A stretch of 64,000 bases of DNA from Malacoraja senta (taxonomy: Eukaryota): contig CM075988.1 of assembly GCA_038087875.1 (NCBI GenBank), positions 4,092,001 to 4,156,000 on the forward strand. The letters are read 5' to 3'. The position numbers and the translations under genes were made by a program. Below, in pieces: positions 2,540 to 61,794 of this stretch (position 1 is the stretch's first letter; the number at the start of each line of letters is the position of its first letter). A model generated the notes under the pieces. The model ran no database searches, was not told where the DNA came from, and saw only the letters and a program-made list of their open reading frames with translations.

Positions 2540-4710
2540 CATAAGGTCATGTCATCGGGGCAGAATTAGGCCATTCTGTCTATCGAGTCTACTCCGCTAT
2601 TCAATCATGGCTGATTCTCCTGCCTTCTCTCCATCACCTCTGACACCCGTACTATCAAGAATCTATCTATCTCTGCCTCAAAATATCCACTGACTTTGCC
2701 TCCTCTGTGGAAAAGAATTCCACAAATTCACACCCCCTGACTAAAGAAATTCCTCCTCATCTCTTTCCTAAAAGAACGTCCTTTAATTCTGAATCTATGA
2801 CCTCTAGTCCTAGACTCTCCCACTAGTGGAAACATCCTGTCCCCATCCACTCTATCCAAGCATTTCACTATTCTGTATGTTTCATATGTTAACCCACTCA
2901 TTCCTGGGGTCATTCTTGTAAACCTCCTCTCCACAGCCAGCAAATCCTTCCTCAGATATGGGGCCCACATTTGCTTACTGTATTCCAAATGTGGCCTGAC
3001 TCATGCCTTACAGAGCCTCAGCTTTACATCCTTGGTTTTGTATTGCAGTCCTCTTGATATAAATGCTAGCATTGAATTTGCCTTCCTTACTATCAATTTG
3101 ACTTGCAAATATACTCTGGGAATCCTGCACCAGCATTCCCAAGTCCATTTCAACCTCCGATTTCTGGATTCTCTCCCCATTTAGAAACAAATCTACACCT
3201 TTATTCCTACTACAAAAATGCATAACTCCACCCTATTCTGCACTATATTCCATCTGCCACTTCTCTGCCCACTCTCCCAGCCTGTCCAAATCCTTCTGCA
3301 GAGTCCCTGCTTTCTCTACTTCCTGCCCCTCCACCTACTTTTGTATCATCCGCAAACTTTGCCACAAAGCCTTCAATCCCCTCGTCCAAATCATTAATAG
3401 ACAATGTGAGGAATAGCGGCTCCAGTACCGAGCCCTGCGGAACACCGCTAGTCACTTGCAGCCAAACAGAAAAAGCCCCCTTTATTGCCACTCTTTGTCT
3501 TCTGCCATCCAGCCAACCTGATATCCATGCTAGTATCTGCCCTTTGATACCATGGGCTCTCATCTTCCTTAGCAGCCTCCCATGTGGCACCTTATCAAAG
3601 GCTTTCTGAAAGTCTAGGTATACAACATCTACTGACTCTCCTTTGTCTGTCCTGCAATTTACTTCTTCAAAGAATTCCAGCAAATTTGTGAGCCAAGACC
3701 TCCCCTTCACAAAGCTATGCTGACTTTGGCCGATTTTATCGTGAACTTCTAAGTACTCCGTAACCTCATCCTTTATAATGGACTAACATTTTACCAACCA
3801 CCGTAGTCAGACTAACCGGCCAATAGTTCCCACTATTCTGCTTTGCTCCCTTTTTGTGCAGCGGGGTAATATTGGTAATTTTCCAATCATCTGGAACCTC
3901 TCCTGTCTCTAGTGATTCTTGAAATATCACTGTCAATGCCTCCACAATCTCTAAAGCCACCTCTTTTAGAACCCTAGGGACAGTCCATCTGGTCCAGGCG
4001 ACTTATCCACCTTCAGCCCTTTCAGCTTCCCAAGCACCTTCTCCCTGGTAATAGCCACTCCACTAACTTCCACCCCCTGACTCTCTTGAATTTCAGGCAC
4101 ATTGCTGGGGCCTTCCACTGTGAAGACTGATGCAACAAAGTTACTCAACTCCCCTGCCATTTCTTTATTCCTCATTATCACTTCTCCTGCACCATTCTCC
4201 AGCGGTCCAACGTCTGCTGGAATGAGAGGGGATCTTATTGAAACATATAAGATTATTAAGGGCTTGGACACGCTAGAGGCAGGAAACATGTTCCCGATGT
4301 TGGGGGAGCCCAGAACTAGGGGCCACAGTTTAAGAATAAGGGGTAAGCCATTTAGAACGGAGATGAGGAAACACATTTTCACACAGAGAGTTGTGAGTCT
4401 GTGGAATTCTTTGCCTCAGAGGATGGTGGAGGCCGGTTCTCTGGATGCTTTCAAGAGAGAGCTAGATAGGGCGCTTGAAGATAGCTGAGATATGGGGAGA
4501 ATGCAGGAACGGGGTACTGATTGTGGATGATCAGCCATGATCACATTGAATGGCAGTGCTGGCTCGAAGGGCCGAATGGCCTACTCCTGCACCTATTGTC
4601 ACTCTTGCCTCTTTCTTACTCTTTATATAACTGAAGAAACTCTTGCTATCCTCTTTTATATTATTGGCTAGCTTACCTTCATATTTCATCTTTTCTCCCC
4701 GTATAGTATT
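2540..4710 (-). mobile_element. CR1 LINE, decayed ORF2 (reverse transcriptase and 3' end), interrupted by a nested CR1 tail
   Basis: Translated motifs VYLDFQKAFDKVPH, GVPQGSVL, KFADDTK (ORF 3243-3710), VPDDWKITNITPLHKKG, KSPGPDG, and C-terminal ESRTRGHRFRIKG...RRNFFSQ; frameshifts and stops present. Confidence 0.92.
4217..4600 (+). mobile_element. CR1 LINE 3' fragment nested in opposite orientation
   Basis: MRGDLIETYKIIKGLD...RTRGHSLRIRG...FTQRVVSLWNSLPQ, then the CR1 3' UTR ggctcgaagggccgaatggcctactcctgcacctatt; the host CR1 resumes at ~4600. Confidence 0.9.
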
Positions 4711-12935: not shown

Positions 12936-13024
12936 AATATAAGTCTCCATTTTCAAGATTCATGTATCCTGATCTAAACATCCTCTACTGAGAACATAAT
13001 TTATTCCTAATATGCAGAGCTTGA

Positions 13025-13224
13025 NNNNNNNNNNNNNNNNNNNNNNNNNNNNNNNNNNNNNNNNNNNNNNNNNNNNNNNNNNNNNNNNNNNNNNNNNNNN
13101 NNNNNNNNNNNNNNNNNNNNNNNNNNNNNNNNNNNNNNNNNNNNNNNNNNNNNNNNNNNNNNNNNNNNNNNNNNNNNNNNNNNNNNNNNNNNNNNNNNNN
13201 NNNNNNNNNNNNNNNNNNNNNNNN
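13025..13224. other. Assembly gap (200 N)
   Basis: Run of N; the round length suggests a scaffold join of unknown true size. Confidence 0.98.
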
Positions 13225-13601
13225 GAAAAGTTGGAGACAAGGCACCCTGCAAAGCAGTCGCTCAGCGGGATTGCATTCAGACTCTTGGTGACATGTTGAA
13301 GCGGCCAAATCCGCGGGGGAGCTGTGAAAGGATCATTCCCAGCAATTCAGAAGCAGCTCAGTGTCTGGCACAGTGCCAACCTCCCTCTGCCTTACCCCCA
13401 ACCCCCTCCCTCTGCCACAGTTGAATCAGACCATTGTGCTGCTTTGGACGGCTACAATGCAACCTTCAAAGTCCCAAGCAAAAGGCCACGGGAGAGACAT
13501 GTCACACGGTCACAGTCACTTGCAGCGGTAAGGCGTCAGCACTCCCCATCCCAGTTTGTGCAGCGCACCATTTTTCGCGTCGGGCTAAAATAACACAAAG
13601 T

Positions 13602-18288: not shown

Positions 18289-18379
18289 GGGGTCATCTCG
18301 ACCCGAAACGTCACCCATTCCTTCTCTCCAGAGATGCTGCCTGTCCCGCTGATTTACTCCAGTATTTTGTGTCTAACTT
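18289..18379 (+). mobile_element. Very short Penelope pLTR insertion with 12-bp TSD
   Basis: cacaaaggtaca at 18277-18288 and 18380-18391 flanks tctcgacccgaaacgtcaccc...gtgtct. Confidence 0.8.
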
Positions 18380-19451: not shown

Positions 19452-20121
19452 AGGGGCTGTCCCACTTGGGGGACCTAATCTGCAAGTTTAGAAGAGTGTC
19501 TTTGACCTTCAAACTCGCAGCATGGTCGACACAAGGTCCTAGGAGGTCCGATGAGGTGGCTGGAACTCTCCTTCATGCTCGAAGGAAGATCCCGAATATT
19601 CCCGGCCTTAGCTAGGTTGCGTAACAATTTTCAGCATGTTGAAACATTTTCCGCGAGTAAAATTTGGTCGGCATGGTTCTTTTGAACTCGTAGTGCAGTG
19701 GAGTGGGGTCGCTATGTAGTTACAGGCAGTCGAGGGCAGCCGTAGGCAATCTCCTTCGCTGACCGGGCATTTTGATTGGCTCATTGGAGTTTTCAGGACC
19801 AAGGAAGACCCACCGGTAGGTAAAATGCCCGCTAAACTTTATTATACTTCTTAAAGTGTCTCCACTCCTTCTCCCCCCTTCTCCCCCTCCCCTACTCCCC
19901 CTTCTCTCCCCTTCTCTCTCCTTCTCTCTCCTTCTCTCTCCTTCTCTCTCCTTCTCCCCCCCTTCTCCACCCCCCCCCCCCCCCGCGCTCTCTAAAGGAC
20001 TTACCGTTACTGTGCAGCCGTTTACCTTCCTCTTCATCGCGGGTGTGAATTTCAGACAGTGCTCGCCCGCTTTCCCTGGCCCCCGCCTTTGCGATGTGTT
20101 TGTGTGTGTGTGTGTGCGTGC

Positions 20122-20166
<45 letters not shown>

Positions 20167-20785
20167 TAGCATGTGTGTGTGTGTGTGTAGCATGTGTGCG
20201 TGCGTGTGTGTGTATGTGTATGTGTGTGTGCGTGTGCATGTGTGTGTGTGTGCGTGTAGCGTGTGTGCGTGCGTGTGTGTGTAGCATGTGTGTGTGTGTG
20301 TGTAGCATGTGTGTGTGCGTGTGCGTGTGTGTGCGTGTAGCGTGTGTGCGTGCGTGTGTGTGTGTTTGTATGTGTGTAGCATGTGTGTGTGTGTGTAGCA
20401 TGTGTGCGTGCGTGTGCACGTGTGTGTGTGTGCGTGTAGCGTGTGTGCGTGCATGTGTGTGTGTGTGTAGCATATGTGCGTGCGTGTGTGTGTGTGTGTA
20501 TGTGTGTAGCATGTGTGTGTGTGTGTGTAGCGTGTGTGCGTCCGTGTGCACGTGTGCGTGTAGCGTGTGTGCGTGCGTGTGTGTTTGTGTGTAGCGTGTG
20601 TGCGTGCATGCGTGTGCGCGCGTGTGTGTGTGTGTGTGTGTATGTGTGTGTGTGCGTGCGTGCGTGTGTGTATGTGTGCGGTCGTTCGATCCAGCTCGAG
20701 GCTTTCCAGGCGAGTTCCCTCGAGCTTGAAGGTCGAAGACACTCTTCTGGATCGCGGATTAGGTCGCCCAAGTGGGACAGGCCCT
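19452..20785. mobile_element. Harbinger-like MITE carrying CT-rich and compound (TG)n tracts
   Basis: TIRs aggggctgtcccacttggg..gacctaatc / gattaggtcgcccaagtgggacaggccct; subterminal inverted match gaagagtgtctttgaccttcaa / ttgaaggtcgaagacactcttc. Confidence 0.82.
20094..20679. repeat. Compound (TG)n microsatellite with tagca/tgcg interruptions
   Basis: Read directly; source of the spurious His/Thr and Cys/Val ORFs. Confidence 0.97.
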
Positions 20786-21179
20786 TTACTCTACAGGGGA
20801 CTGAGACTTTAGATAACTAGTGATGTCTGAAAATGGCACTTGCTGAAAGAGACACAATTCAGGACAGGCTGTCAGGTTCTGTACATCTGTCTGTCCATTT
20901 TTCTCCACAGATGTTGCCTGACCTGCTGAGTTCCTGCAACAGTTTGTTTTCTGCTCAAGATTACAGCATCTGCAGTCCTTGTGCGTGCACAGGTTGGTAA
21001 CTCTCTGATGTCTGATCTGACAGATGTAATATAGCTCAGAGATTCATAAAAGCTGGTTAGGGAGTTACTGTCTTCGCTAAAGATGCTAACTTTATTCTTG
21101 CTGTACAGTTGGCTAGTGTACAGTTGGGAAAGAGGTGCTTTGTATTTGTTTAGACTTGACGTGTGTGATACTGCGCGAA

Positions 21180-23508: not shown

Positions 23509-24126
23509 ACTTGGATAGGCGATGTTTCCGGTCTCGTCCCTTCTTCAGATGTTGGGACCCGACCTGAAACGTCGCCGATCCATGTCGTCCAGAGCTGCTG
23601 CCTGTCCCGCCAAGTTACTCCAGCACTGCGTTTTTGTTGCAAAGCAGCTTCTGCAGTTCCTTCCCAAACCTTTTTCAGGATGCAGAATGGAGGCTGATAA
23701 CTCTAATCACAAAGACCACAATGCAGCAGCACTTCCAATTTAGTAGAAATCCTTGAATCGCTGCCAGAGCAACTTGGACAAATGGTGCCGCAGTACTAAT
23801 ACCTGCCTCTGATGGGTAGTTACCGATTGGCATGGTGCGTGAAGTATAGCTCCCCAGGTGATGAATCAGGTGGTTGATGGGCCTTCACAGGTTGACTGAG
23901 CACGAGCTGGCCTCGCGAGAGGCCACTGTGAAGCAGCGGAGATAAATCACCCACAAACCCTTGTCCCTCTCACATAACCATGCAATCATGGGCTCCTGTA
24001 ATGTCAGTCAGCCTCTGTCAAGCATCGCAAAATGCAGCACTCAGACATTTTTGGTTGCAGAACTAAGCAAGTTAAAATTAACTTTGTGGTCTGTTGTCGG
24101 ACAATCACTCCCTCACCCACATAGCA

Positions 24127-24130
24127 GTGT

Positions 24131-24165
<35 letters not shown>

Positions 24166-24239
24166 AGTGTGAGTGTGTGTGTGAGTGTGAGTGTGAGTGT
24201 GTGCGCGTGTGTGAGTGTGTGTGCGCGTGTGTGAGTGTG

Positions 24240-24303
<64 letters not shown>

Positions 24304-24335
24304 CGCGTGTGTGAGCGTGTGTGTGTGTGTGTGTG

Positions 24336-24417
<82 letters not shown>

Positions 24418-24810
24418 TGTGTGTGTGTGAGTGTGTGTGAGTGTGTGTGAGTGTGTGTGAGTGTGTGTGAGTGTGTGTGACAGAGAGAGAGAGTGTGTGA
24501 GAGAGGGAGTGAGAGGGAGAGAGAGTGTGAGAGCGTGTTGGAGAGAGAGAGAGTGTGAGTGTGAAAGAGACAGAGAGTATGTGAGAGAGAGAGTGAAAGA
24601 AAGAGAGAGTGAGAGGGAGAGCGTGTTAGAGAGAGCGTGAGCGGGGAGAGAGAGAAAGAGGGGGAGAGAGAGAGTGAGGGGAGGGAGAGAGAGATGGAGA
24701 GTGAAAGAAAGTGAGAGAGTGTGAGTGAGTGTGAGAGTGAGAGAAAGTGTGTGAGCGAGCATGAGCGAATGTGAACGAGTGTGAGCGTGAGAGAGAGAGC
24801 GTGCGAGTCT
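24127..24810. repeat. (TG)n grading into (AG)n microsatellite
   Basis: Read directly. Confidence 0.97.
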
Positions 24811-25502
24811 CTCTATCCCCATGAAGACAGATGCTGAATGACGTGATTATGTGTGAGCAGTGTCTCCTTGTCAAGTGGAAGGCAAATCTGAAGTGTTTAA
24901 TGAAATGTAATTCCTTGAAATTGACAGCCTCACTTTTTGAAGCATGAATGTCCAGCCTCATTACTCTGACTAATCGTAACTTGACTTTTAAACAGATGAG
25001 TGTATTGGCACAGCCTTTAATCCTGCCTTCAATTGCAGCTCCAGTGCACTCACTCAGATTGACCCAGTGCCCACAAGGCCCATAGATTCCCCGTCCCACT
25101 CTCCCCTGCTTCTCAGCAAAGTCAACACCCACACAATCTCAGTAGACATCTGCTTTGGTGCTGACGTAGTACTGGTTTAGTTTAAAAAGGTTCTCGACCC
25201 GAAATGTCACCCATTCCTTCTCTCCAGAGTTGCTGCCTATCCCGCTGAGTTACTCCAGCTTTTTGTGTCTATCTTCGGTTTTAACCAGCCTCTGCAGTTC
25301 CTTCCTGCACCAGTTTAGTTTAATTTAGAGATACGAGCGTGGAATCAGGCCCAAGTCCATAGCGACCTTATGATCTCATTACGGGTGTCAGATGGAGAGA
25401 AGGCAGGAAAATGGGATTAGGAGGGAGATATAGATCAGCCATGATTGAATGGCAGACTAAACTAGACTTGACGGATCAAAGGCCCAATTCTGCTCCTATC
25501 CT

Positions 25503-29940: not shown

Positions 29941-29949
29941 ATAAACTTG

Positions 29950-30406
29950 TGCAGATGCTGGTTTAAATCAAAAATAGGCACAAAATCCTGGTGTAACTCA
30001 GCGGGGCAGGCAGCATCTCTGGATCGAAGGAATGGGCGACGTTTCGGGTCGAGACCCTTCTTCAGACTGATGTCAGGGGAGTGGGCGGTACAGAGATAAA
30101 ATGTAGTCGGAGACAGTAAGACTGGTCGGAGAACTGGGAAGAGGGAAGGGATGGAAAGAAAGGGAAAGCAAGGCCTAGAAGTTAGAGGTCAATGTTCATA
30201 CCGCTGGGGTGTAAGCTGCCCAAGTGAAATATGAGGTGCTGTTCCTCCAATTTGCGCTGGGCCTCACTCTGACAATGGAGGAGGCCCAGGACAGAAAGGT
30301 CAGCATGGGAATGGGAGGGGGACTTAAAGCGCTGAGCAACCAGGACTGAGAGGAGGTATTCAGTGAAACGATCGTTGATCCTGCGCTTGATCTCTCCGAT
30401 ATAAAC
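29950..30406 (-). mobile_element. Penelope-like element 3' fragment: GIY-YIG C-terminus, UTR and pLTR with intact hammerhead motif
   Basis: 30403-30182 reads YIGEIKRRINDRFTEYL...HSHADLSVLGLLHCQSEAQRKLEEQHLIFHLGSLHPSGMNIDL*; hammerhead core at 30038-30065. Confidence 0.9.
30038..30065 (-). ncRNA. Putative minimal type I hammerhead ribozyme
   Basis: CTGAAGA-A-GGGT CTCG ACCC-GAAA-CG-TC: both conserved boxes, 4-bp stem II, palindromic ACGT in place of stem III, GUC triplet. Confidence 0.7.
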
Positions 30407-30914
30407 TTGATTTCAACAAAGTTCGCAGGTTCTCCTGATGCTCATTCGGGCACGTTGGTTAATTCTGCAAATGCCTGCTGATCTCAAATGTTCATTAACC
30501 GACACATTTTATCACATCCTCAAAGGAAATGTACCAAAAGACCATTGCTTCAAACAATTGTTGATGTGTTGCTGGATTACTGACAATCAACACAGGAGCA
30601 AGAGGTCAAGGCTGATGGGTGAGATCGGACACTTACTTGTGTAGGAAGGAACTGCAGATGCTGGTTTGCACCACAGATAGACACAAAAAGCTAGAGTAAC
30701 TCTGCGTGCCAGACAGCATCTCTGGAGAAAGGGAATAGGTCGATTCCCTTTCTCCAGAGATGCTGTCTGATCTGCTGAGTTACTCTAGCTGTTTGTGTCT
30801 ATCTTTGGGTACTTACTTGTTCAGTTTAGTTAATTATCACGTGTAGCGAGGTACAGTGAAAAGCTTTTGTTGCGTGCTAACCAGCCAGTGGAAAGACAAT
30901 ACATGATTACAATC

Positions 30915-31120
30915 GTTTAAGAAGGAACTGCAGATGCTGGAAAATCGAAGGTAGACAAAAATGCTGGAGAAACTCAGTGGGTGAGGCAGCATCTATGGAG
31001 CAAAGGAAATAGGCAACGTTTCGGGCCGAAACCCCAGGGTTTCGGCCCGAAACGTTGCCCATTTCCTTCGCTCCATAGATGCTGCCTCACCCGCTGAGTT
31101 TCACCAGCATTTTTGTCCAC
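30915..31120. mobile_element. Penelope pLTR fold-back with ~84-bp near-perfect arms
   Basis: 30951-31034 is inverted against 31037-31120; inserted in a Rex-type tail with an imperfect duplication (atgattacaatcg / ataattataatcg). Confidence 0.85.
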
Positions 31121-31691
31121 ATAATTATAATCGAGCCATTTACAGTGTGTAGATACATGATCAGGGAATAACATTTAGTGCAAGGTAAAGCCAGCAAAGT
31201 CTGATCAAGGATAGTCCGAGGATCACCAATGAGGTAGATAGTAGTTCAGCACTGCTCTCAGGTTGTGGTAGGATAGTTCAGTTGCCTAGTAACAGCCTTG
31301 CATCCTAGACTCACTGCTCAGTTGTAATAGTAAATAGTAAATAAACTGAACAAGCATTGATGTCCTTGAGCCAGTGGACAGGTGTTGGACTAAACAAGAG
31401 CAGCACGTAGTACTCTGAACAAGTACCCGTTGTGCAGTTAACTGGGTGACCCCTCTTAACCTAAATGCTGGTTTCTGACTTCTGCTTGTGTGATTCAGTG
31501 GATTTGAAGAGAAAGAAAATGGATAGAAATGTTAGTATAAATTTTCAGTAGAAATAGCAGCATGGCAGTGGGAAAACAATTGCATACAGAGGCTTTAAGA
31601 TGATGGAATCCAAGCCCTTTCTAGTCAAAGGGAAAAATAACAACTCCCAGCAAGTCATGGCCTGCAAATGTTTGCCAGAACTAAACACACA

Positions 31692-42140: not shown

Positions 42141-42168
42141 GACGTTTCGGGTCGAGACCCTTCTTCAG
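42141..42168 (-). ncRNA. Putative minimal hammerhead ribozyme in a pLTR fold-back
   Basis: Exact core CTGAAGAAGGGTCTCGACCCGAAACGTC. Confidence 0.68.
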
Positions 42169-42324: not shown

Positions 42325-43861
42325 GGCTCTGCCCGAGCCAGCTGCCTGCCCCTTTTCCGGGGTTATGTCCGTGCCCGGGTGGTACTAGAAAGGGACTATG
42401 CGCTGCCCACGGGCACCCTGGGGGATTTCTGGGACCACTGGGCACCGAGGGGGGGGTTGAGTGTTTCCTGGACAAGGATTGTAATATAGTTGTTTCGTAG
42501 TTGACTTGCTATATTTGTGTAGTCTTGAACTATGGTGGTGGGGTCTGTTTTGTTTTATTGTGTTCTAAATACTATTTTAATGTTTGAATAAATATGGGAC
42601 AACTTTATAAGGAAGGCACTTTTCTGACATTTCAGGAGTTGCAACAGACTTATGGACTTCGAGGAAATGATTATTTCAGATATCTTCAACTCAGAGATTA
42701 TGTAAAATCGAATACTCAAAACTTTCGAATTAGAAATTCAGAAATTCTTGACGAATGTTGGAATAAACATCCTAATACAGAAAAATTAATATCTTATATA
42801 TATAATATCTTATTAGACAGTGACATTCCATCGACCGACTTACACAGACAAACATGGGAAAAAGAATTAAATGAAATAATAACGAAAGATACTTGGGAAG
42901 AAAGTTTACAACATATACATCAATGTTCATTAAATGCCAGACATTCTTTAATACAATTTAAAGTAATACATAGATTACATTATTCAAAAACAAAATTACA
43001 TAAAATCTTTCAACATATCTCACCTATATGTGATAAATGTCAACATTTAGAAGCCACCTTATCTCATATGTTTGCAAACTGTACAAAAATTAAAAAATTC
43101 TGGGTAAATATTTTTAGTATAATATCTAAAGTGACCAGCACACAAGTGGACCCGGATCCAAAATTTATAATACTCGGAACATCAGAATTAATTCAAACAT
43201 TTACAACAACACAAAGAAACTTTATTGATTATAGTATAATAACAGGAAAAAAATTAATTCTAAAATTTTGGAAAGGCCCTACGGCCCCCACAATGAAAAT
43301 GTGGATTATAGAAATGACGGAGACCTTAAACGTGGAAAGAATCAGATTTTCCCTGTTGGACAAACAGGAAGTATTCGTTGGAACATGGTCTCCCTTTATT
43401 GATTATTTAAAGGGTCAGAATGGTTCAGCACGGGAACCTGACTAATGCTCGGGCTAAAAAATGGATGAAATGCTATATTCTGAAATGTACGAATATATCT
43501 CGAATGAAGTTTTTTATTTCAATAAATTTTTCCACTCTTCTTTAACTATCTTTCTCTTTTTTTTTTTTTTTTTTTCTTTTTTTTTTTTTTTCTCTCTCTT
43601 TTTCTTCTCTCTCTTTTCTTTCTTTACTTCATCTATCTTTTTAGTTCTATCTAGTTTAAAATAAAAAATTAAAAAAGGCAAAAGGTATTGGAGACAATGT
43701 AATAATAAATGTGATAATATTATCAATTTAAAAATGTAAGACTGTAATGATGTTAATAGGTTATGTACTTATCTCCAATAAAAAATATTTTCAAAAAAAA
43801 TAAATAATAATAAATAAATAAAATAAAATAAAAATGAATAAATATTTTGATTTAAAAAAAA
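42325..43861 (+). mobile_element. Tx1-clade LINE 3' end, split by an L1 insertion
   Basis: CLPLFRGYVRARVVLERDYALPTGTLGDFWDHWAPRG resembles the Tx1 ORF2 C-terminus; its UTR ends tgaataaatat | tttgatttaaaaaaaa after the L1. Confidence 0.7.
42596..43834 (+). mobile_element. L1-clade LINE, 5' truncated, uninterrupted ORF2 C-terminus with 3' UTR and A-rich tail
   Basis: ORF 42594-43445 (283 aa): FQELQQTYGL, FRYLQLRDYV, LIQFKVIHRLHY, CDKC...HMFANC zinc knuckle; TSD tgaataaatat at 42585-42595 and 43835-43845. Confidence 0.9.
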
Positions 43862-45277: not shown

Positions 45278-46230
45278 AGACAGACACAAAGTGCTGAAGT
45301 AACTCAGCGGGACAGGCAGCATCGCTGGAGAAAAGGAAAAGGTGATATTTTTGGTCGGGACCCTTCTTCAGAATGAGAGTCAGGAGAGAGGGAAACTAGG
45401 GAAAAGAAAATGTATAAAGAACAAATGAATGAAACGTGGTCGTAGAGCGGAGAGCAGGAGGAATCACAGAGGGGGTACAGAGAGAGAGGATGCTGCAGAA
45501 CTCTCATCGGAGAGCTTCTTCACAGTAGGTAGACAAAAATGCTGGAGTAACTCAGCGGGACAGACCGCATCTCTGGATAGAAGGAAGGGGTGACGTTTCG
45601 GGTCCGAACAAGGGTGGCGACCTGAAACGTCACCCATTCCTTCTATCCAGAGATGCTGCCTGTCCCGCTGAGTTGCTCCAGTATTTTGTGTTTACATTCG
45701 GTGTAAACCAGAATCTGCAGTCCCTTCCTACGCGTTCTTCAAAGTAGACATACCTTGAGGAGATTTCGCAGTGGAGTAGACAAAATGTGGAGGGAGGAAC
45801 GGAAGACGTTCCCTCCTCTCTGACAGGTTCTGCAACACCTTCTCCTGCTGCTCCCCCTCTGTGATTCCTCCTGCTGTCTGGCACTATGACCATGTTTCAT
45901 TTGTTTGTTCTTGGTACATTTTCATATCTCTACTTCCCCTCTTCCCTGAGTCTCAGTCTGAAGAAGAGTCTCGACACAAGACGTCACCTATTCTTTTTCT
46001 CTAGCGATGCTGCCTGACCCGCTGAGTTACTCCAGCATTGTGTGTCTATCTTCAGTGTAAACCAGCATCTGCAGTACCTTCCTACAAACGAATCAGGCCC
46101 TGCTAACCTGAGAGAGGCCTGTTATTGGACAGTCTGAAGAAGGGTCTCGACCTAAAACATCAACCATTCCGTCTCTCCAGAGATGCTGCCTGTCCCGCTA
46201 AGTTACCCCAGCTTTTTGTGTCTGTCTTCT
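45278..46230. mobile_element. Cluster of five Penelope pLTR copies forming nested inverted repeats
   Basis: Outer arms ~45280-45505 and ~45825-46055 are reverse complements; inner fold-back ~45530-45730; a fifth copy starts at ~46131. Confidence 0.8.
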
Positions 46231-46244
46231 GTTATTGGACACAG

Positions 46245-46870
46245 TTGTGAAGGTAGCCCAGACAATCGCACAAACCAAGCTCCCCTCCATGGACTCCATT
46301 TATACCACACCCTGCCTCGGCAAGGCCAGCAGCATAATCAAGGACGAGTCGCACCCTGGCCACTCCATCTTTTCCCTTCACCCATCAGGCAAAATGTATA
46401 GAAGTATGAAATTGCACAACTTCAGGGACAGTTTCTTCCCCGCTGTTATCAGGCAACTGAATCATCCTACCGAAACCGGAGAGCAGTGCTGAACTACTAT
46501 CTATCTCTGGTGACCCTCGGACTAACCTTGATTGGACTTCACTGGCTTTACCTTGTACTAAACGTTATTCCCTTATCATGTTTGTTTAAGAAGGAACTGC
46601 AGATGCTGGAAAATCCCAGGTACACAAAAATGCTGGAGAAACTCAGCGGGTGCAGCAGCATCTATGGAGTGAAGGAAATAGGCAACGTTTCGGGCCGAAA
46701 CCCTTCTTCAGAAATGTATCTATACAATGTATCTATACACTGTATATGTATCTATACACTGTAAATGGCTCGATTGTAATCATGTATTGTCTTTCCGCTA
46801 ACTGGATAGCACGCAACAAAAGCTTTTCACGGTACCTTGATACACGTGACAATAAACTAAACAAAACTGA
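46245..46870 (+). mobile_element. Rex1/Babar 3' fragment with a nested Penelope pLTR (~46583-46712)
   Basis: LPSMDSIYTTPCLGKASSIIKDESHPGHSIFSLHPSGKMYRS...FRDSFFPAVIRQLN; the nested copy has core CTGAAGAAGGGTTTCGGCCCGAAACGTT (46684-46711, minus). Confidence 0.82.
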
Positions 46871-50678: not shown

Positions 50679-52991
50679 AATATATATTTTTATTTTATTA
50701 GAAGTAAGTACAGTAATATGGCACCAAGGTGCCTAATATATATTGGCAGGTTACATTTTATGTACAGCTTCTTATTTTTTTTTTTAAATAATGAAAGAGA
50801 GAAAGAGAGAATAGATAATAAAAGATAGAAATACGTGTGATATATGGTGTGTGAAAAGGAGAAAGGGGGGAAAGAGGGAAAGTGAAGAAAGGAAAAGGAG
50901 AGAGAAAGAGAAAGAGTAGAGAGTAGGAAATTAAGGAGATTGTTATTTATATTCTTGACCATCCTTCACCCAGTCCTGAAACAGTTAGTTTCTACGATTT
51001 TGTTGCACCATATGCTTCCAAAAAGTCGATAAATGGAGACCAACTCATTAAGAATTGGTCTGATTTATCTATTAGGAAGAATCGCATTTCTTCAAGATGT
51101 GCAGTCCAACATGTTTGAAATCCACATTTTAAGCGTTGGTATGGGTGTATTTTTCCAAAATTTAAGTATAGTTTTTTTTGCCGTTATTAACCCATAATTA
51201 AAAAATGAATTTTGAAATGTGTTCAATTTGTTTCCGTCTTCCATTACTCCAAATATAATCATTTTAGTGTTAGGTTCCATTTTTATCTTGAATAATTTTG
51301 TAAATATTTCAAAGATATCACTCCAGAATTTATAAAGTTTTATGCAGGAAACAAAAGAGTGTGTTATAGTGGCATTTTGGGATAGACATTTATCACAAAT
51401 GGTGGAAGTATTTGGATAGAATTTATTCAGTCTAGTTTTTGAATAATATAATCTATGTAAAATTTTAAATTGAATGAAGTTATGTCTTACATTAATTGAA
51501 CATTTGTGTATATATATCAAATACTTTTCCCATGTTTCATTCATGATTTTTACCATTAATTCTCGTTCCCAATCTTCTCTAAGTGCCTCTGTCGATGGTA
51601 GTTCTATATTTAAAATACTATTATATAAATATGATATTAATTTCTGTGTCAGCCTTAATATTCATTGCTTCTTCCAGTGGATCTAAAGTTATATTTTGAT
51701 GTCTTTGTATGTATTTCTTCATGAAGTTGCAGATCTGAAGATATTTAAAATATTGGTTATTTTTCAGTTTAAATTTTAATTGTAATTGTTGGAATGATGA
51801 CAGATTTCCCATTTCATACATATCACCGATCCTTTTAATTCCCATTCTTTCCCATTGATTATATGTTTTATCAATTAGAGATGGTTTAAATGCAGGATTA
51901 TTCACTATTGGCGTTAACAATGATAGGTTTCTTAATTTTAAAGCTAATTTTATTTGTTTCCAAATTCTTATTGTATTATGTATAATTGGGTTATTCTTAT
52001 ATATTGTGTTGTTCAGTTTTATCGGGGAGAAGAGGATCGCTCCTATGTTACAAGGAGAACAATCCTCTTTCTCCATTCTTATCCATTCTATCTGTTGGGT
52101 AGGACTGTCCAACCAATAAATTATATTCTTAATATGCACTGCCCAATAATAATACAAAAAGTTCGGAAGTGAAAGTCCCCCAACGTCTTTGGGTTTACAC
52201 AAGTGTTTTCTTTGAATTCTATGTGATCTATAGTCCCAAATAAAATTGGTAATATTAGAGTCTAGTTTTTTGAAAACGTTTTTTGGTATATATAATGGTA
52301 TAGATTGAAATAGGTATAAAATTGTGGTAAAAAGATCATTTTTATAGCGTTTATTCTGCCTATTATTGACAACGGAAGTGTTTTCCAGAATTTAATCAAC
52401 GCGTTCAGTTTATTTAATAAAGGCATAAAATTAGCATTAAATAATGCTTTGTATTTTCTAGTAATTTGAATACACAAATACTTAAATTTTTCTGTTGCAA
52501 TTTTAAAGGGGAATTTTAATAAGTGTGTAGATTCTTGAGGTTTTAACGTCATGATTTCACCTTTATTCCAATTTATTCTATATCCAGAAAAATAACCAAA
52601 TTCCTCTATTAAATTTAATAAGTTTGGTATGCTCGTTTGTGAATTTGTAATGTATAGAAATATATCGTCTGCGTATAATGGAATTTTATTATTTGAGTCC
52701 TTAGTATTATATCCCCGAATATTCAGATGAGTTCTTATACTTTCAGCCAAGGGCTCTATCATAAGGGCAAATAGCAGGGGTGATAAAGCACATCCATGCC
52801 TATTGCCCCTTTATAATTGAAATTTTGGAGACAACATATTATTAGTTAATATTCTTGCCATCGGTTTATCATATAATAATTTTACCCATACAATAAAATT
52901 CTCTCCCATATTAAAATTTTGCAGTACTTTATATAAATACTGCCACTCTACCTGATCAAATGCTTTCTCTGCGTCCAGAGAAACAATTGAT
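50679..52991 (-). mobile_element. L1-clade LINE, 5' truncated (RT, C-terminal domain, 3' UTR), frameshifted
   Basis: SLDAEKAFDQVEWQYL, GCALSPLLFAL, KIPLYADD, GYRINWNK, GGLSLPNF, FIQFKILHRLYY, CDKC..HSFVSC; TSD atatcctacactttaaaa at 50661-50678 and 52992-53009. Confidence 0.92.
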
Positions 52992-53072
52992 ATATCCTAC
53001 ACTTTAAAAGTGGACAAAAATGCTGTAGAAACTCAGCCGGTGAGGCAGCATCTGTGGAGCGAAGGAATAGGC

Positions 53073-53100
53073 GACGTTTCGGGTCGAGACCCTTCTTCAG
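53073..53100 (-). ncRNA. Putative minimal hammerhead ribozyme
   Basis: Exact core CTGAAGAAGGGTCTCGACCCGAAACGTC within a ~110-bp pLTR insert. Confidence 0.68.
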
Positions 53101-53127
53101 ACTCCTCCTTAAACATATCCTACACGT

Positions 53128-54252: not shown

Positions 54253-54920
54253 GACTGTATCTCTCTAATTCCGTTGCAGATTTGCCTCTCTCGTCCCCTT
54301 CGCTATCTCGGTGACCAATACTATATCTCTTCAAGCAATGAGCTTTGGCCTTGGCCCCTCAAAGACATCATCTCTTTCTGGCTGGAAAATATCATCCTTA
54401 ATCAGTATTTCCACCCTGTCTCCTTTCTTCCCAACTTATCTTTTCTTAACACCTTTTATCAAGGAATATTAGGTGCCTGATCCTCTCTTTACTTGAGCCA
54501 GTGTTTCCATTATCACCACAATATCACACTTTCACACAGATGTCTGTGGCTCACTAACGTCATTCACCACACTTGGTGAGTTTGCAAACACTTATTTTAA
54601 ACCTGTCTTTGACCCGCAACTCGACTACTTTCCGATTCCTATATTACCTAACAGTTTCATCTTGCGATAGACAAAAAATGCTGGAGTAACTCAGCGGGAC
54701 AGGCAGCATCTGTGGAGAGAAGGAATGGGTGACGTTTCGGGTCGCGACCCTTCTTCAGACCCGAAACATCACCCATTCTTTCTCTCCAGAGTTATTCCAG
54801 TATTTTGTGTCTATCTTCGGTTTAAACCAGCATCTGCAGTTCCTTCCTACACAGTTCAATCTTGTGCATCTTATTCCTCTATTTTACCACTTGCTGAACC
54901 ACCCTTTGTTTAGTGTAAGT

Positions 54921-58414: not shown

Positions 58415-60036
58415 CAGTGCCCTGCATACTGTTTGGGACAAAGATCCATCATTTATTTATTTACCTCTGTACTCCACAAATTTGAGATTTGTAATTTAAA
58501 AAATCACATGTGGTTAAAGCGCACATTGTCAGATTTTATTAAAGGGTATTTTTATACATTTTGGTTTCACCATGTAGAAATTACATCTGTGTTTATACAT
58601 AGTCCCCCTATTTCAGGGCACCATAATGTTTGGGACACATGGCTTCATAAACGTTTGTAATTGCTCAGGTGTGTTTAATTGCCTCCTTAATGCAGGTAAA
58701 AGAGAGCTCTCAGCACCTAGTCTTTCCTCCAGTCTTTCCATCACCTTTGCAAAGTTTTATTGCTGTTTATCAATACGAGGACCAAAGTTATGCCAATGAA
58801 AGTCAAAGAAGCCATTATGAGACTGAGAAACTAGAATAAAACTGTTAGAGACATCAGCCAAACCTTAGGCTTACCAAAATCAACTGTTTGGAACATCATT
58901 AAGAAGAAAGAGAGCATTGGTGAGCTTACTAATCGCAAAAGGACTGGCAGGCCAAGGAAGACCTCTTCAGCTGATGACAATAGAATTCTCTCTATAATAA
59001 AGAAAAATCTCCAAACACCTGTCCGACAGATCAGAAACCTCTTCAGGTGTGGATTTGTCAATGACTACTGTCTGCAGAAGTCTTCATGAACAGAAATACA
59101 GAGGCTATACTGCAAGATGCAAACCACAGCTCGACTGCAAAAATAGGTTGGCCAGGTTACAGTTTGCCAAGAAGTACTTAAAAGAGCAATCACAGTTCTG
59201 GACAAAGGTCTTGTGGACAGATGAGACTAAGATTAAATTATATCAGAGTGATGGCAAGAGAAAAGTATGGAGGAGAGAAGGAACTGCCCAAGATCCAAAG
59301 CATACCACCTTGTCTGTGAAACACAGTGGTGGGGGTGTTATGGCCTGGGCATGTATGGCTGCTGAAGGTACTGGCTCACTTATCTTCATTGATAATACAA
59401 CTGCTGATGGTAGTAGCAATATGAATTCTAGTATAAAGACACATCCTATCTGCTCAAGTTCAATCAAATGCCTCAAAACTCAAAATTCTACAGCAAGACA
59501 ATGATCCCAAACATACTGCTAAAGCAACAAAGGAGTTTGACAAAATGAAAAAATGATCAATTCTTGAATGGCCAAGTTAATCACCTGATCTTAACCCAAT
59601 TGAGCATGCCTTTTATATGCTGAAGAGAAAACACAAGGGGACTAGCCCCCAAAACAAGCATAAGCTAAAGATGGCTGCAATACAGTCCTGGCAGAGCATC
59701 ACCAGAGAAGACACCTAGCAACTGGTGATGTCCATGAATCGGAGACTTCAAGCAGTCATTTGTTTTCAAGAGTATGCAACACAATACTAAACATGACTAC
59801 TTTCATTTACATGACATTGCTGTGTCCCAAATATGATGGTGCCCTGAAATGGGGGGACGATGTATAAACACTGCTGTAATTTCTACATGGTGAAACCAGA
59901 ATGTATAAAAATGGCCTTTATTAAAATCTGACAATCTGACATGCGATTTTTTTTCTATTGCAACTCTCAAATTGTGGAGTGCAGAGGCAAATAAATAAAT
60001 GATCGGTCTTTGTCCCAAACATTATGGAGGGCACTG
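58415..60036 (+). mobile_element. Tc1-like DNA transposon (IR/DR type), full length, inactive
   Basis: TA TSD (58413-58414 and 60037-60038); termini cagtgccct / agggcactg; ~220-bp TIRs with inner direct repeats (cataatgtttgggaca at ~58622; inverse at ~59822). Confidence 0.95.
58774..59790 (+). pseudogene. Tc1 DD34E transposase remnant
   Basis: GRPRKTS, KVLWTDETKI, VKHSGGGVMAWAC, QQDNDPKHTAK, WPS*SPDLNPIEH; 34 residues between the second D and E by hand count; stops, frameshifts and a small deletion. Confidence 0.92.
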
Positions 60037-61794
60037 TAGGTGGAGGGGGAGGGGGAGTGGGAGGGGGAGGTGAGAAATACTTCCAGAGGAGGGGGGTGGG
60101 GAGCACTGGATTGTGTTAAACTCACTTCTGTCTTCCCTGGTAACAGATGCAAAGTGAAAGGATGTGTAAATGCCGAATTTAGAATGGCACAGTGATGATT
60201 GTGTGGTTTTAATGAAGTATTTGAATTTTCATAACTTCATGTGATAGGAGCAGAATGAGGCCATTCGGCCCATCAAGTCTACCCCACCATTCAATCATGG
60301 CTCATCTATCTTTCCCTCTCAACCCCATTCTCCTGCCTTCTCCTCATAACCCCTGACACCCTTACTAATCAAGAAATTGTCAATCTCCGCCTTAAACATG
60401 TTCATTGACTTGACCTCCACAGCCTTCTGTGACTTTTTGTATCAGTTGGGATAAGCAAGCTGACTATGTTTCTGGAAATTCTGGAATATCAGCCAAATGA
60501 TGTCCATGAACTAACAAAGGAGCAGTCCGTGATGGTCTGGGTGTTGAGTAATGAGCAGATTTCACTAACAACCAAATGATGCATGAACATTTATCTGATA
60601 GCAATCGTAATTAAATTCAACGGTGCCTTTGAAATGAAAATCATTAAACATTGTCTAAGATTCTAAACCTGGCAAGGGCAGAATTACAGAAAATAGGACA
60701 GGGACTACCCCAGTAAAATGGGCACATATGGCAACAGATGAAGCCTCAGTACGAAGAGTGGATGACACACAAACACAGCCGTCCGCTCTAGCTCGGTGCA
60801 TGTGACAATAATGAGCACATAACATCCATAACAAAAACTAAAATACTGAGAGGTATTCAATAAAGAATTTGCTGTGCTGCTAGTCACCCTAGACGTCAGA
60901 GGGAAAAGTATTAGTTATGGAAGAAAAAAGTAAGTAAGTACGTAAGTTTATTGAAGTATTCACATACCAGGAATTTGCCTTGGTGCTCCGCCCACAAGTA
61001 ACAGCATGAGATACAGTGAGAGTTAAAGATAGGAACAATACAAAGCAAATACTAGGGCTGCACGGTGGCACAGCAGTAGAGTTGCCGCCTCACGGCACCA
61101 GAGACGTAGGTTCAACCCTGAATACAGTTGCTGTCTGTACGGAGTTTGTATTAGTTTTGGGTCGAGGACGAAGCGTCTGAAGAAGGGCTCGACCCGAAAC
61201 ATCACCGATTCCTTCTACCCAGAGATGCTGCCTGTCCCGCTGAGTTACTCCAGCATGTTGTGTCAATCTTCGGAGTAAACCAGCATCTGTAGTTCCTTCC
61301 TACACGCAGCAGCACTACCTGCCGCCACATCATTGTACCTGATAGAGATAGACAATGGAGACAATGAAGAGCTACAGATGCTGGAATCTGCAGCAAAACC
61401 CAATGTGTTGAAGGAAATCAAGGGGTCAGACAGTATCTGTGGAGGGAATTAACAGGCAACATTTCAGGTCAGGAACCTTCCACAGATTGAAAAAGGGTTT
61501 CGAACTGAAACATTGCCGTCTAATCCCTCTCTAGATGCTGCCTGACCTACTGCGTTCCCTCACAACTTTTGTGTTTTGCTTCGGATTCCAGCATTGGCAG
61601 CTCCTTGTGTCTTCATGGTGGTGTATTTTTTAATTGGTGGTATTCTCTCCAGGCATTGCCTTTATGAACTTTTGGAAGGCAGCTGACTAGCTCCTTCATG
61701 AGAGACCATTAAAAAATGTTAACGTTTGTGGAACTTTGGCAATGTCTTGGTTGGGCTAAGAAATGGTCTGAATGGCACGTCTTTAGACTTTACA

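Follow-up and report, generated by a model that had tools for sequence, protein, structure and literature searches.

The window, that is, the whole 64,000-nucleotide stretch of Malacoraja senta DNA analysed here, carries on its minus strand the end of a decayed retrotransposon, in which a minimal hammerhead motif lies 3' of a GIY-YIG endonuclease remnant. Fragments of the same repeat recur throughout the window, several of them fused head to head. The features are as follows.

30038..30065, minus strand: minimal hammerhead core (CUGAAGA plus an extra A, helix II GGGU/ACCC, CUCG loop, GAAA, CG palindromic stub, UC)
Between 30038 and 30037, minus strand: predicted cut site, placed from the hammerhead consensus
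30036..30067, minus strand: motif with its 2-bp helix I (G30067-C30036, U30066.G30037), with an A.C mismatch at the third pair position
29941..30037, minus strand: downstream pLTR part with the optional tail of about 35 nt
30068..30184, minus strand: pyrimidine-rich upstream pLTR, from the ORF end to the ribozyme
30185..30412, minus strand: C-terminal remnant of a GIY-YIG endonuclease that shares 77% identity over 56 aa with its counterpart in locus L006
42043..42173, minus strand: short copy whose core is exact and whose 5' truncation falls at the ribozyme edge
52999..53106, minus strand: another short copy, also with an exact core and cut off 5' at the edge of the ribozyme
46583..46713, minus strand: copy of the young UUCG-loop subfamily with intact core, in which truncation removed helix I
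54651..54851: head-to-head pair with an intact core (54731-54758) in the minus arm
30915..31146: head-to-head pair joined within helix II, without the CUGA box; source of spurious Rfam microRNA matches
45517..45731: head-to-head pair with decayed cores
30639..30811: head-to-head pair of tails, the ribozyme mostly missing
61366..61605: head-to-head pair of an older subfamily

Other mobile elements have left remnants at 3246-3782, 52265-52810, 42588-43442 and 59001-59501, namely reverse transcriptase (RT) fragments of LINE type (RVT_1, weak zf-RVT) as well as a transposase of the Tc1/Tc3 type. Approximately 13020-13230, 19720-20820 and 24000-24850 are occupied by some 200 consecutive Ns and by long simple-repeat tracts.

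The core had been reported as a 28-mer present exactly at 30038-30065, 42141-42168 and 53073-53100, all on the minus strand, and these positions were reproduced. With up to 3 mismatches the 28-mer matches 10 times in the window and not once in 100 shuffles. An edit-distance scan returned 25, 26 and 30 copies at up to 5, 6 and 7 edits, against a mean of 0-0.1 copies in 20 resamples, and a ribozyme-plus-tail profile detected 50 fragments, against none on the reversed sequence. The 26 further positions given for near-intact or decayed copies all correspond to real fragments, 25 overlapping a profile match and the 26th (23520) being recovered by the edit scan, but most are not intact ribozymes, and the CUGA box is missing from several, for example those at 18297 and 31014. 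A strict core pattern and a general descriptor that includes helix I each select 5 window copies and share 4, which leaves 6 distinct intact ones; with 5-6 of 50 fragments intact, most copies are dead. A second subfamily, described as GGGT-TTCG-GCCC...GAAACGTT, is also real.

In the numbering used here, +1 is the C of CUGA and the predicted cut falls between +28 and +29. The proposed anatomy, a minimal type I hammerhead with a palindromic ACGU stub, agrees at every position with the consensus published for Penelope-like elements (PLEs), CUGANGAH-G...C-GAAA-N-palindrome-N-UH (Cervera and De la Pena 2014; PMC4209133, searchable parts), and the motif occupies the homologous place in the pLTR. The CUGANGA box is followed by one extra base before helix II; helix II opens with G10.1-C11.1 and has 4 bp in all seven subfamily majority sequences; and GAAA-CG-UC/UU provides the palindromic 15.2/16.2 stub and the UH cut site. 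The extra base after A9, for which the original prediction had cited a natural viroid hammerhead, is present but not rare, since it belongs to that same consensus (CUGANGAH). Helix I is indeed only 2 bp long, the third pair being A.C in 219 of 300 copies, and has precedents in Culex, D. virilis and Oikopleura in the accessible parts of the literature. A longer helix I was rejected, as pairs three and four mismatch.

Penelope ancestry, likewise predicted, is borne out by the presence of the motif in the end repeats of an RT-endonuclease element. The ribozyme lies on the sense strand in both pLTRs of this element of about 3.9 kb. At 25 of 30 RT-bearing loci (two locus pairs look duplicate) the motif is found in sense orientation, 95-130 nt downstream of the ORF, and the full-length loci L121 and L122 have a ribozyme at each end, spaced 3.8-3.9 kb apart. 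In the element protein, RT is followed by a C-terminal GIY-YIG domain; the Pfam matches (RVT_1, E=5e-6; GIY-YIG, E=4e-4) each fall slightly below the curated cut-off, and 3 of 4 short fragments gave no Pfam match. A CX4CXXC linker and a CCHH motif can be seen by eye in the translations. According to the accessible text of published surveys, a CX2-5CxxC linker marks Neptune and Nematis elements; judged from these sequence features, the element is likely of the Neptune type, the linker being shared with Nematis. Among named proteins, its closest relatives (56-67% identity) come from rays and sharks. Long copies form partial tandems with a ribozyme at every unit boundary, and these tandems, inverted truncated copies and a 30-40-bp tail were all found, as in EN+ PLEs. 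Sequencing runs of eight organisms share words with the stretch, and the repeat is present in the six of these that were examined.

Several further properties of the element were observed. L121 (G000:C13:1764631-1768669) and L122 are full-length units of 3.8-3.9 kb, yet frameshifted, and their N-terminal region contains variable tandem repeats of 24-42 nt. At least 40 N-terminal copies are 97% alike, which indicates recent amplification. In L202, L203 and L210, the likely start codon of the long ORF, near position 1530, lies within AG|GTATGC, which resembles a splice donor; upstream of it, an ORF of 41 codons extends across the tail. Short tandemly repeated units of about 66 nt, each restarting at GAAACGTC and devoid of both CUGA and helix II, occur at L065:6141, L103:8003, L126:12-121 and L126:8368-8563. 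Two close same-strand pairs of intact cores, G000:C1:3601827/3602000 (173 nt) and C1:3997405/3997443 (38 nt), are candidate natural dimers.

Across the 1.94-Gb genome, the exact 28-mer occurs 18,728 times, an intact core with paired helix II 54,595 times, and an intact core with helix II and the 2-bp helix I 41,266 times; reversed-pattern controls gave zero. Fragments were counted in 152 of 160 fetched 10-kb stretches (1.518 Mb), the 8 targeted stretches being excluded and 20 of the 152 coming from small contigs known to carry an RT match. The 656 fragments in this sample (1 per 2.3 kb, a lower density than the 1 per 1.3 kb of the window) extrapolate to about 840,000 genome-wide (bootstrap 730,000-950,000). 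From the sample, 49,900 strict cores would be expected, close to the number counted, so that it can be taken as representative. A descriptor search and an Rfam scan were among the checks suggested with the original prediction. The minimal-hammerhead descriptor matched 51 times in the sample (about 65,000 extrapolated genome-wide), every match belonging to this one family and none to another ribozyme family, against 0-1 matches in 5 resamples. The Rfam covariance-model scan of the window yielded no hammerhead at E<=1; its 8 matches at that level were without exception to microRNAs and sub-threshold, and were rejected as fold-back artefacts. The very large repeat family that had been anticipated exists, but the data do not support taking its copy number as a count of working ribozymes: compensatory covariation is lacking, and neither genomic junctions nor RNA ends mark the cut site. 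In the literature covered, as far as its text is accessible, the largest count of minimal hammerheads for one genome is about 9,000 (X. tropicalis). The family is notable for its copy number and is unusually abundant; its kind is already known. Luense et al. (2017) reportedly counted more than 150,000 such motifs over a wide range of genomes, cartilaginous fish possibly among them, which is why a copy-number record is not established.

Clustering placed 415 of the 656 fragments in seven subfamily majority sequences, from which members diverge by 5-18%. Across the seven, the core bases and the three G-C pairs of helix II are invariant except for a G>A change at stub position 26 in two older subfamilies, read as CpG decay; downstream, 21 of about 68 columns vary, and blocks of the tail are as invariant as the core. 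Subfamily changes fall in loop II, at N17 (C to U) and at U-A pairs of helices I and II that become U.G. These helix changes are one-sided and keep pairing, with no two-sided change here or in four other organisms, which leaves covariation unproven; the pattern fits constraint on the ribozyme in a master lineage. Once inserted, the core decays almost like its flanks. Per copy, non-CpG mismatch is 5.0% in the core and 7.3% in invariant tail columns, with CpG sites at 20-30%, so that the core lies slightly below a purely neutral expectation, a difference confounded by end-trimming and hidden subfamilies. The minimum-energy fold predicted for monomer or dimer is not a hammerhead (helix II probability <=0.02, helix I about 0), although this is weak evidence because nearest-neighbour models ignore the non-standard pairs of the core. 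A 3' flank complementary to GAAGAAGGGU is predicted to form a rival hairpin that sequesters the core (30026-30063 of the window, minus strand; family-wide).

The ends of the copies carry most of the information on how they arose. Among 560 of the 656 fragments with enough flank, 296 were joined to unrelated flanking DNA, 222 (about 40%) were head to head, and 42 had a same-strand neighbour within 250 nt, about half of these 42 being without the 5' box. The 296 flank-joined copies show no 5'-junction spike at the predicted cut site: in the 3 nt after it, 7 of 271 copies at risk end (0.9% per base), and from +51 to +3 the chance of ending is 0.3-1.1% per base. At +3..+10, 20 of 228 copies end, and at -4..+2, 74 of 208 (7% per base). 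This pile-up at the 5' edge of the ribozyme is confirmed, independently of alignment ends, by target-site duplications, which were identified in 63 of 282 copies against 17 of 282 controls. Among the 63, 12 have their 5' end at -4..+2, 10 at +3..+10 and none at +29..+31; the corresponding numbers for the 17 controls are 1, 0 and 0. At their 3' ends, copies fall into two classes, about +65 and about +100 after the cut site.

Long copies behave differently. Of 30 that include the ORF start, 25 extend as far as the upstream ribozyme; 24 of these continue through it and 1 ends there, compared with 15 of 38 short copies of the young subfamily that end at the 5' edge (p=0.002). The stop would thus act mainly at the first ribozyme met. 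Since cut-site junctions are absent and long copies continue through the upstream ribozyme, we infer that the RNA serving as template was mostly uncut. The missing junctions inform only on RNAs that were copied; cut RNAs may go unused.

Head-to-head pairs are mostly ribozyme-centred fold-backs of 200-270 bp, about 120,000 of them genome-wide. Direct repeats of at least 10 nt flank 45 of 95 pairs, against 7 of 95 controls, and many pair junctions lie at the palindromes of the motif. One short and one tailed arm are combined in 62 of 74 clear pairs, where 37 were expected (p=1e-9). The 95 pairs display no strong ADAR-type A-to-G asymmetry (totals 188 and 182).

RNA was examined in one poly(A) run, X23, from another species, in which 16,491 of 7,335,232 reads (0.22%) fall on the ribozyme stretch, with equal depth on both strands across the predicted cut site. 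The RNA ends that had been expected to pile up at this site were absent from the run, a weak test in which about 6% of the run was covered and about 7% of fragments have an intact core. The both-strand signal fits passive transcription within host RNAs. At L122:4436-4745, the few ORF-start reads are strand-biased, probably antisense to the element if the library is of the usual stranded type. Splicing onto the CAG 5' of the core, as in D. virilis, is not supported: no RNA-specific joint appeared among those listed, 53 young flanks share no upstream exon, and the boundary is not confined to one base.

Based on these data, the motif is very probably a consensus hammerhead in both repeats of a shark/ray PLE, likely of the Neptune clade, whose dispersed copies are likely stumps of copying rather than working host ribozymes. 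By comparison with the Anolis PLE, reverse transcription would begin internally on the RNA, at two sites that lie 65 and 100 nt beyond the ribozyme and match the two 3' end classes found here. Most cDNAs stop after 70-110 nt, preferentially at the 5' edge of the ribozyme, as the junctions show. Both ends of the cut target DNA may often be primed, one per start site, and the two cDNAs could join at the ribozyme palindromes, producing head-to-head pairs with target-site duplications of 12-17 bp. The ribozyme itself would cut weakly, depending on a second copy and probably also on the element's protein; it may be kept intact in the master lineage and decay freely after insertion.

Alternatively, an initiator-like TCAGT 5' of the core could drive transcription of the ribozyme-plus-tail unit, which would spread like a non-autonomous SINE, the 5' pile-up then being an RNA start. 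TCAGT fits the initiator consensus, the 5' ends are concentrated at -4..+5, similar loose ends, with heterogeneous flanks, recur at -2/-3 in the runs of the six other organisms, and D. virilis Penelope has an internal TATA-less promoter. We nevertheless consider this unlikely, though deserving of some weight: the ends fade stepwise, by about 30% per base from +1 to -6, instead of marking a single base; they are far rarer at this site in long than in young short copies; and the poly(A) reads, a weak test, lack a pile-up of starts.

A more speculative proposal, which we regard as doubtful, is that the hammerhead acts as a pairing and boundary element in the productive complex and not as a cutter. 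A protein dimer would hold two RNAs joined through their ACGU palindromes, with one start site for each target DNA end, and copying would be halted at, or the protected RNA would end at, the ribozyme 5' edge, much like a telomerase template boundary. If true, this would explain the pile-up at the 5' edge, its absence at the second ribozyme of long copies and the roughly 120,000 asymmetric fold-backs.

That the ribozyme is instead efficient in vivo, cutting multi-unit PLE RNA and host intron and UTR transcripts at tens of thousands of sites, appears quite improbable. The retention of core, helix II and helix I in 41,266 copies and the share of the relative's poly(A) reads that carry the repeat (0.22%) would favour it, as would the weak cutting of minimal hammerheads as dimers reported in accessible published text. 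Against it stand the missing junction spike in the genome, the lack of an RNA-end pile-up with equal depth of both strands across the site, the predicted fold, and the fact that most intact copies are lone monomers, only 42 of 560 having a same-strand neighbour within 250 nt. Least probable is a merely hammerhead-like motif conserved as a protein-binding or promoter element, for although two-sided covariation and an Rfam hammerhead match at E<=1 are missing and helix I has 2 bp, the whole published PLE consensus is matched at the homologous pLTR place, the 51 descriptor matches in 1.518 Mb all belong to one family (0-1 in 5 resamples), and homologous motifs do cut according to the accessible literature.

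The role of minimal hammerheads in PLEs is an open question according to the accessible parts of reviews, and the value of this family lies in its junction statistics: it is a very large natural record of insertion junctions that makes this role testable. Counts of shark and ray ribozymes will be dominated by dead stumps, and the fold-backs probably give rise to double-stranded RNA and to false positives in microRNA annotation.

Much of what is described here has counterparts in known systems; anatomy, tails and inverted copies are already known for PLEs from the accessible literature. The published minimal hammerheads of PLEs, as far as their descriptions are accessible, share with this family CUGANGAH, G10.1-C11.1, GAAA-N-palindrome-N-UH and the lack of helix III, together with a place in both pLTRs and mostly dispersed single copies; the 4-bp helix II and 2-bp helix I lie at the short end of their range. 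Intact motifs number 41,000-65,000 here, compared with about 9,000 in X. tropicalis and about 4,000 in the coelacanth. The searchable text and supplement of the PLE hammerhead survey (PMC4209133) contain no cartilaginous fish, and among the papers listed in the literature searches, a weak test, the single mention of shark or ray PLE hammerheads concerned retrozymes of one species. These non-LTR retrozymes (Li et al., bioRxiv 10.64898/2026.07.22.740005, accessible text) also have type I hammerheads in PLE-derived non-coding repeats; they are reported in one chondrichthyan and reach at most 14,255 copies, in the axolotl. Retrozymes are tandem arrays with a ribozyme per unit, whereas the present family is dispersed or head to head. 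Identity with them was rejected, 42 of 560 copies having a same-strand neighbour, although intact close pairs do occasionally occur.

Neptune-clade EN+ PLEs (Craig et al. 2021; PMC8557442, accessible text) agree in RT with C-terminal GIY-YIG, the CX2-5CxxC linker, partial tandems, an adjacent inverted truncated copy and a tail at one end only; they differ in that inverted units here are mostly ribozyme-centred fold-backs. The pile-up at the ribozyme 5' edge and the arm asymmetry were not found in the accessible text of the Anolis study (PMC11167929) or of other PLE literature, including PMC4209133, PMC6765202, PMC5680766, PMC6155905, PMC8557442, PMC2377424 and PMC7761336. The Poseidon element of Anolis (PAc; Frangieh et al. 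2024, PMC11167929), although of a different clade and with an ORF that starts inside the ribozyme rather than about 160 nt further on, as the long ORF does here, shares the two internal start sites that define the tail, priming of both target strands, a ribozyme in the pLTR and an uncut RNA template. Its ribozyme, according to the same accessible text, required protein in order to cut and left no ends in RNA-seq, and insertion did not depend on it. The junction record of the present family lends in vivo support to the use of two start sites and the priming of both strands, as observed in vitro for that element, argues against cleavage setting the 5' end of the copied RNA, and points to an unexplained but testable stop at the ribozyme 5' edge.
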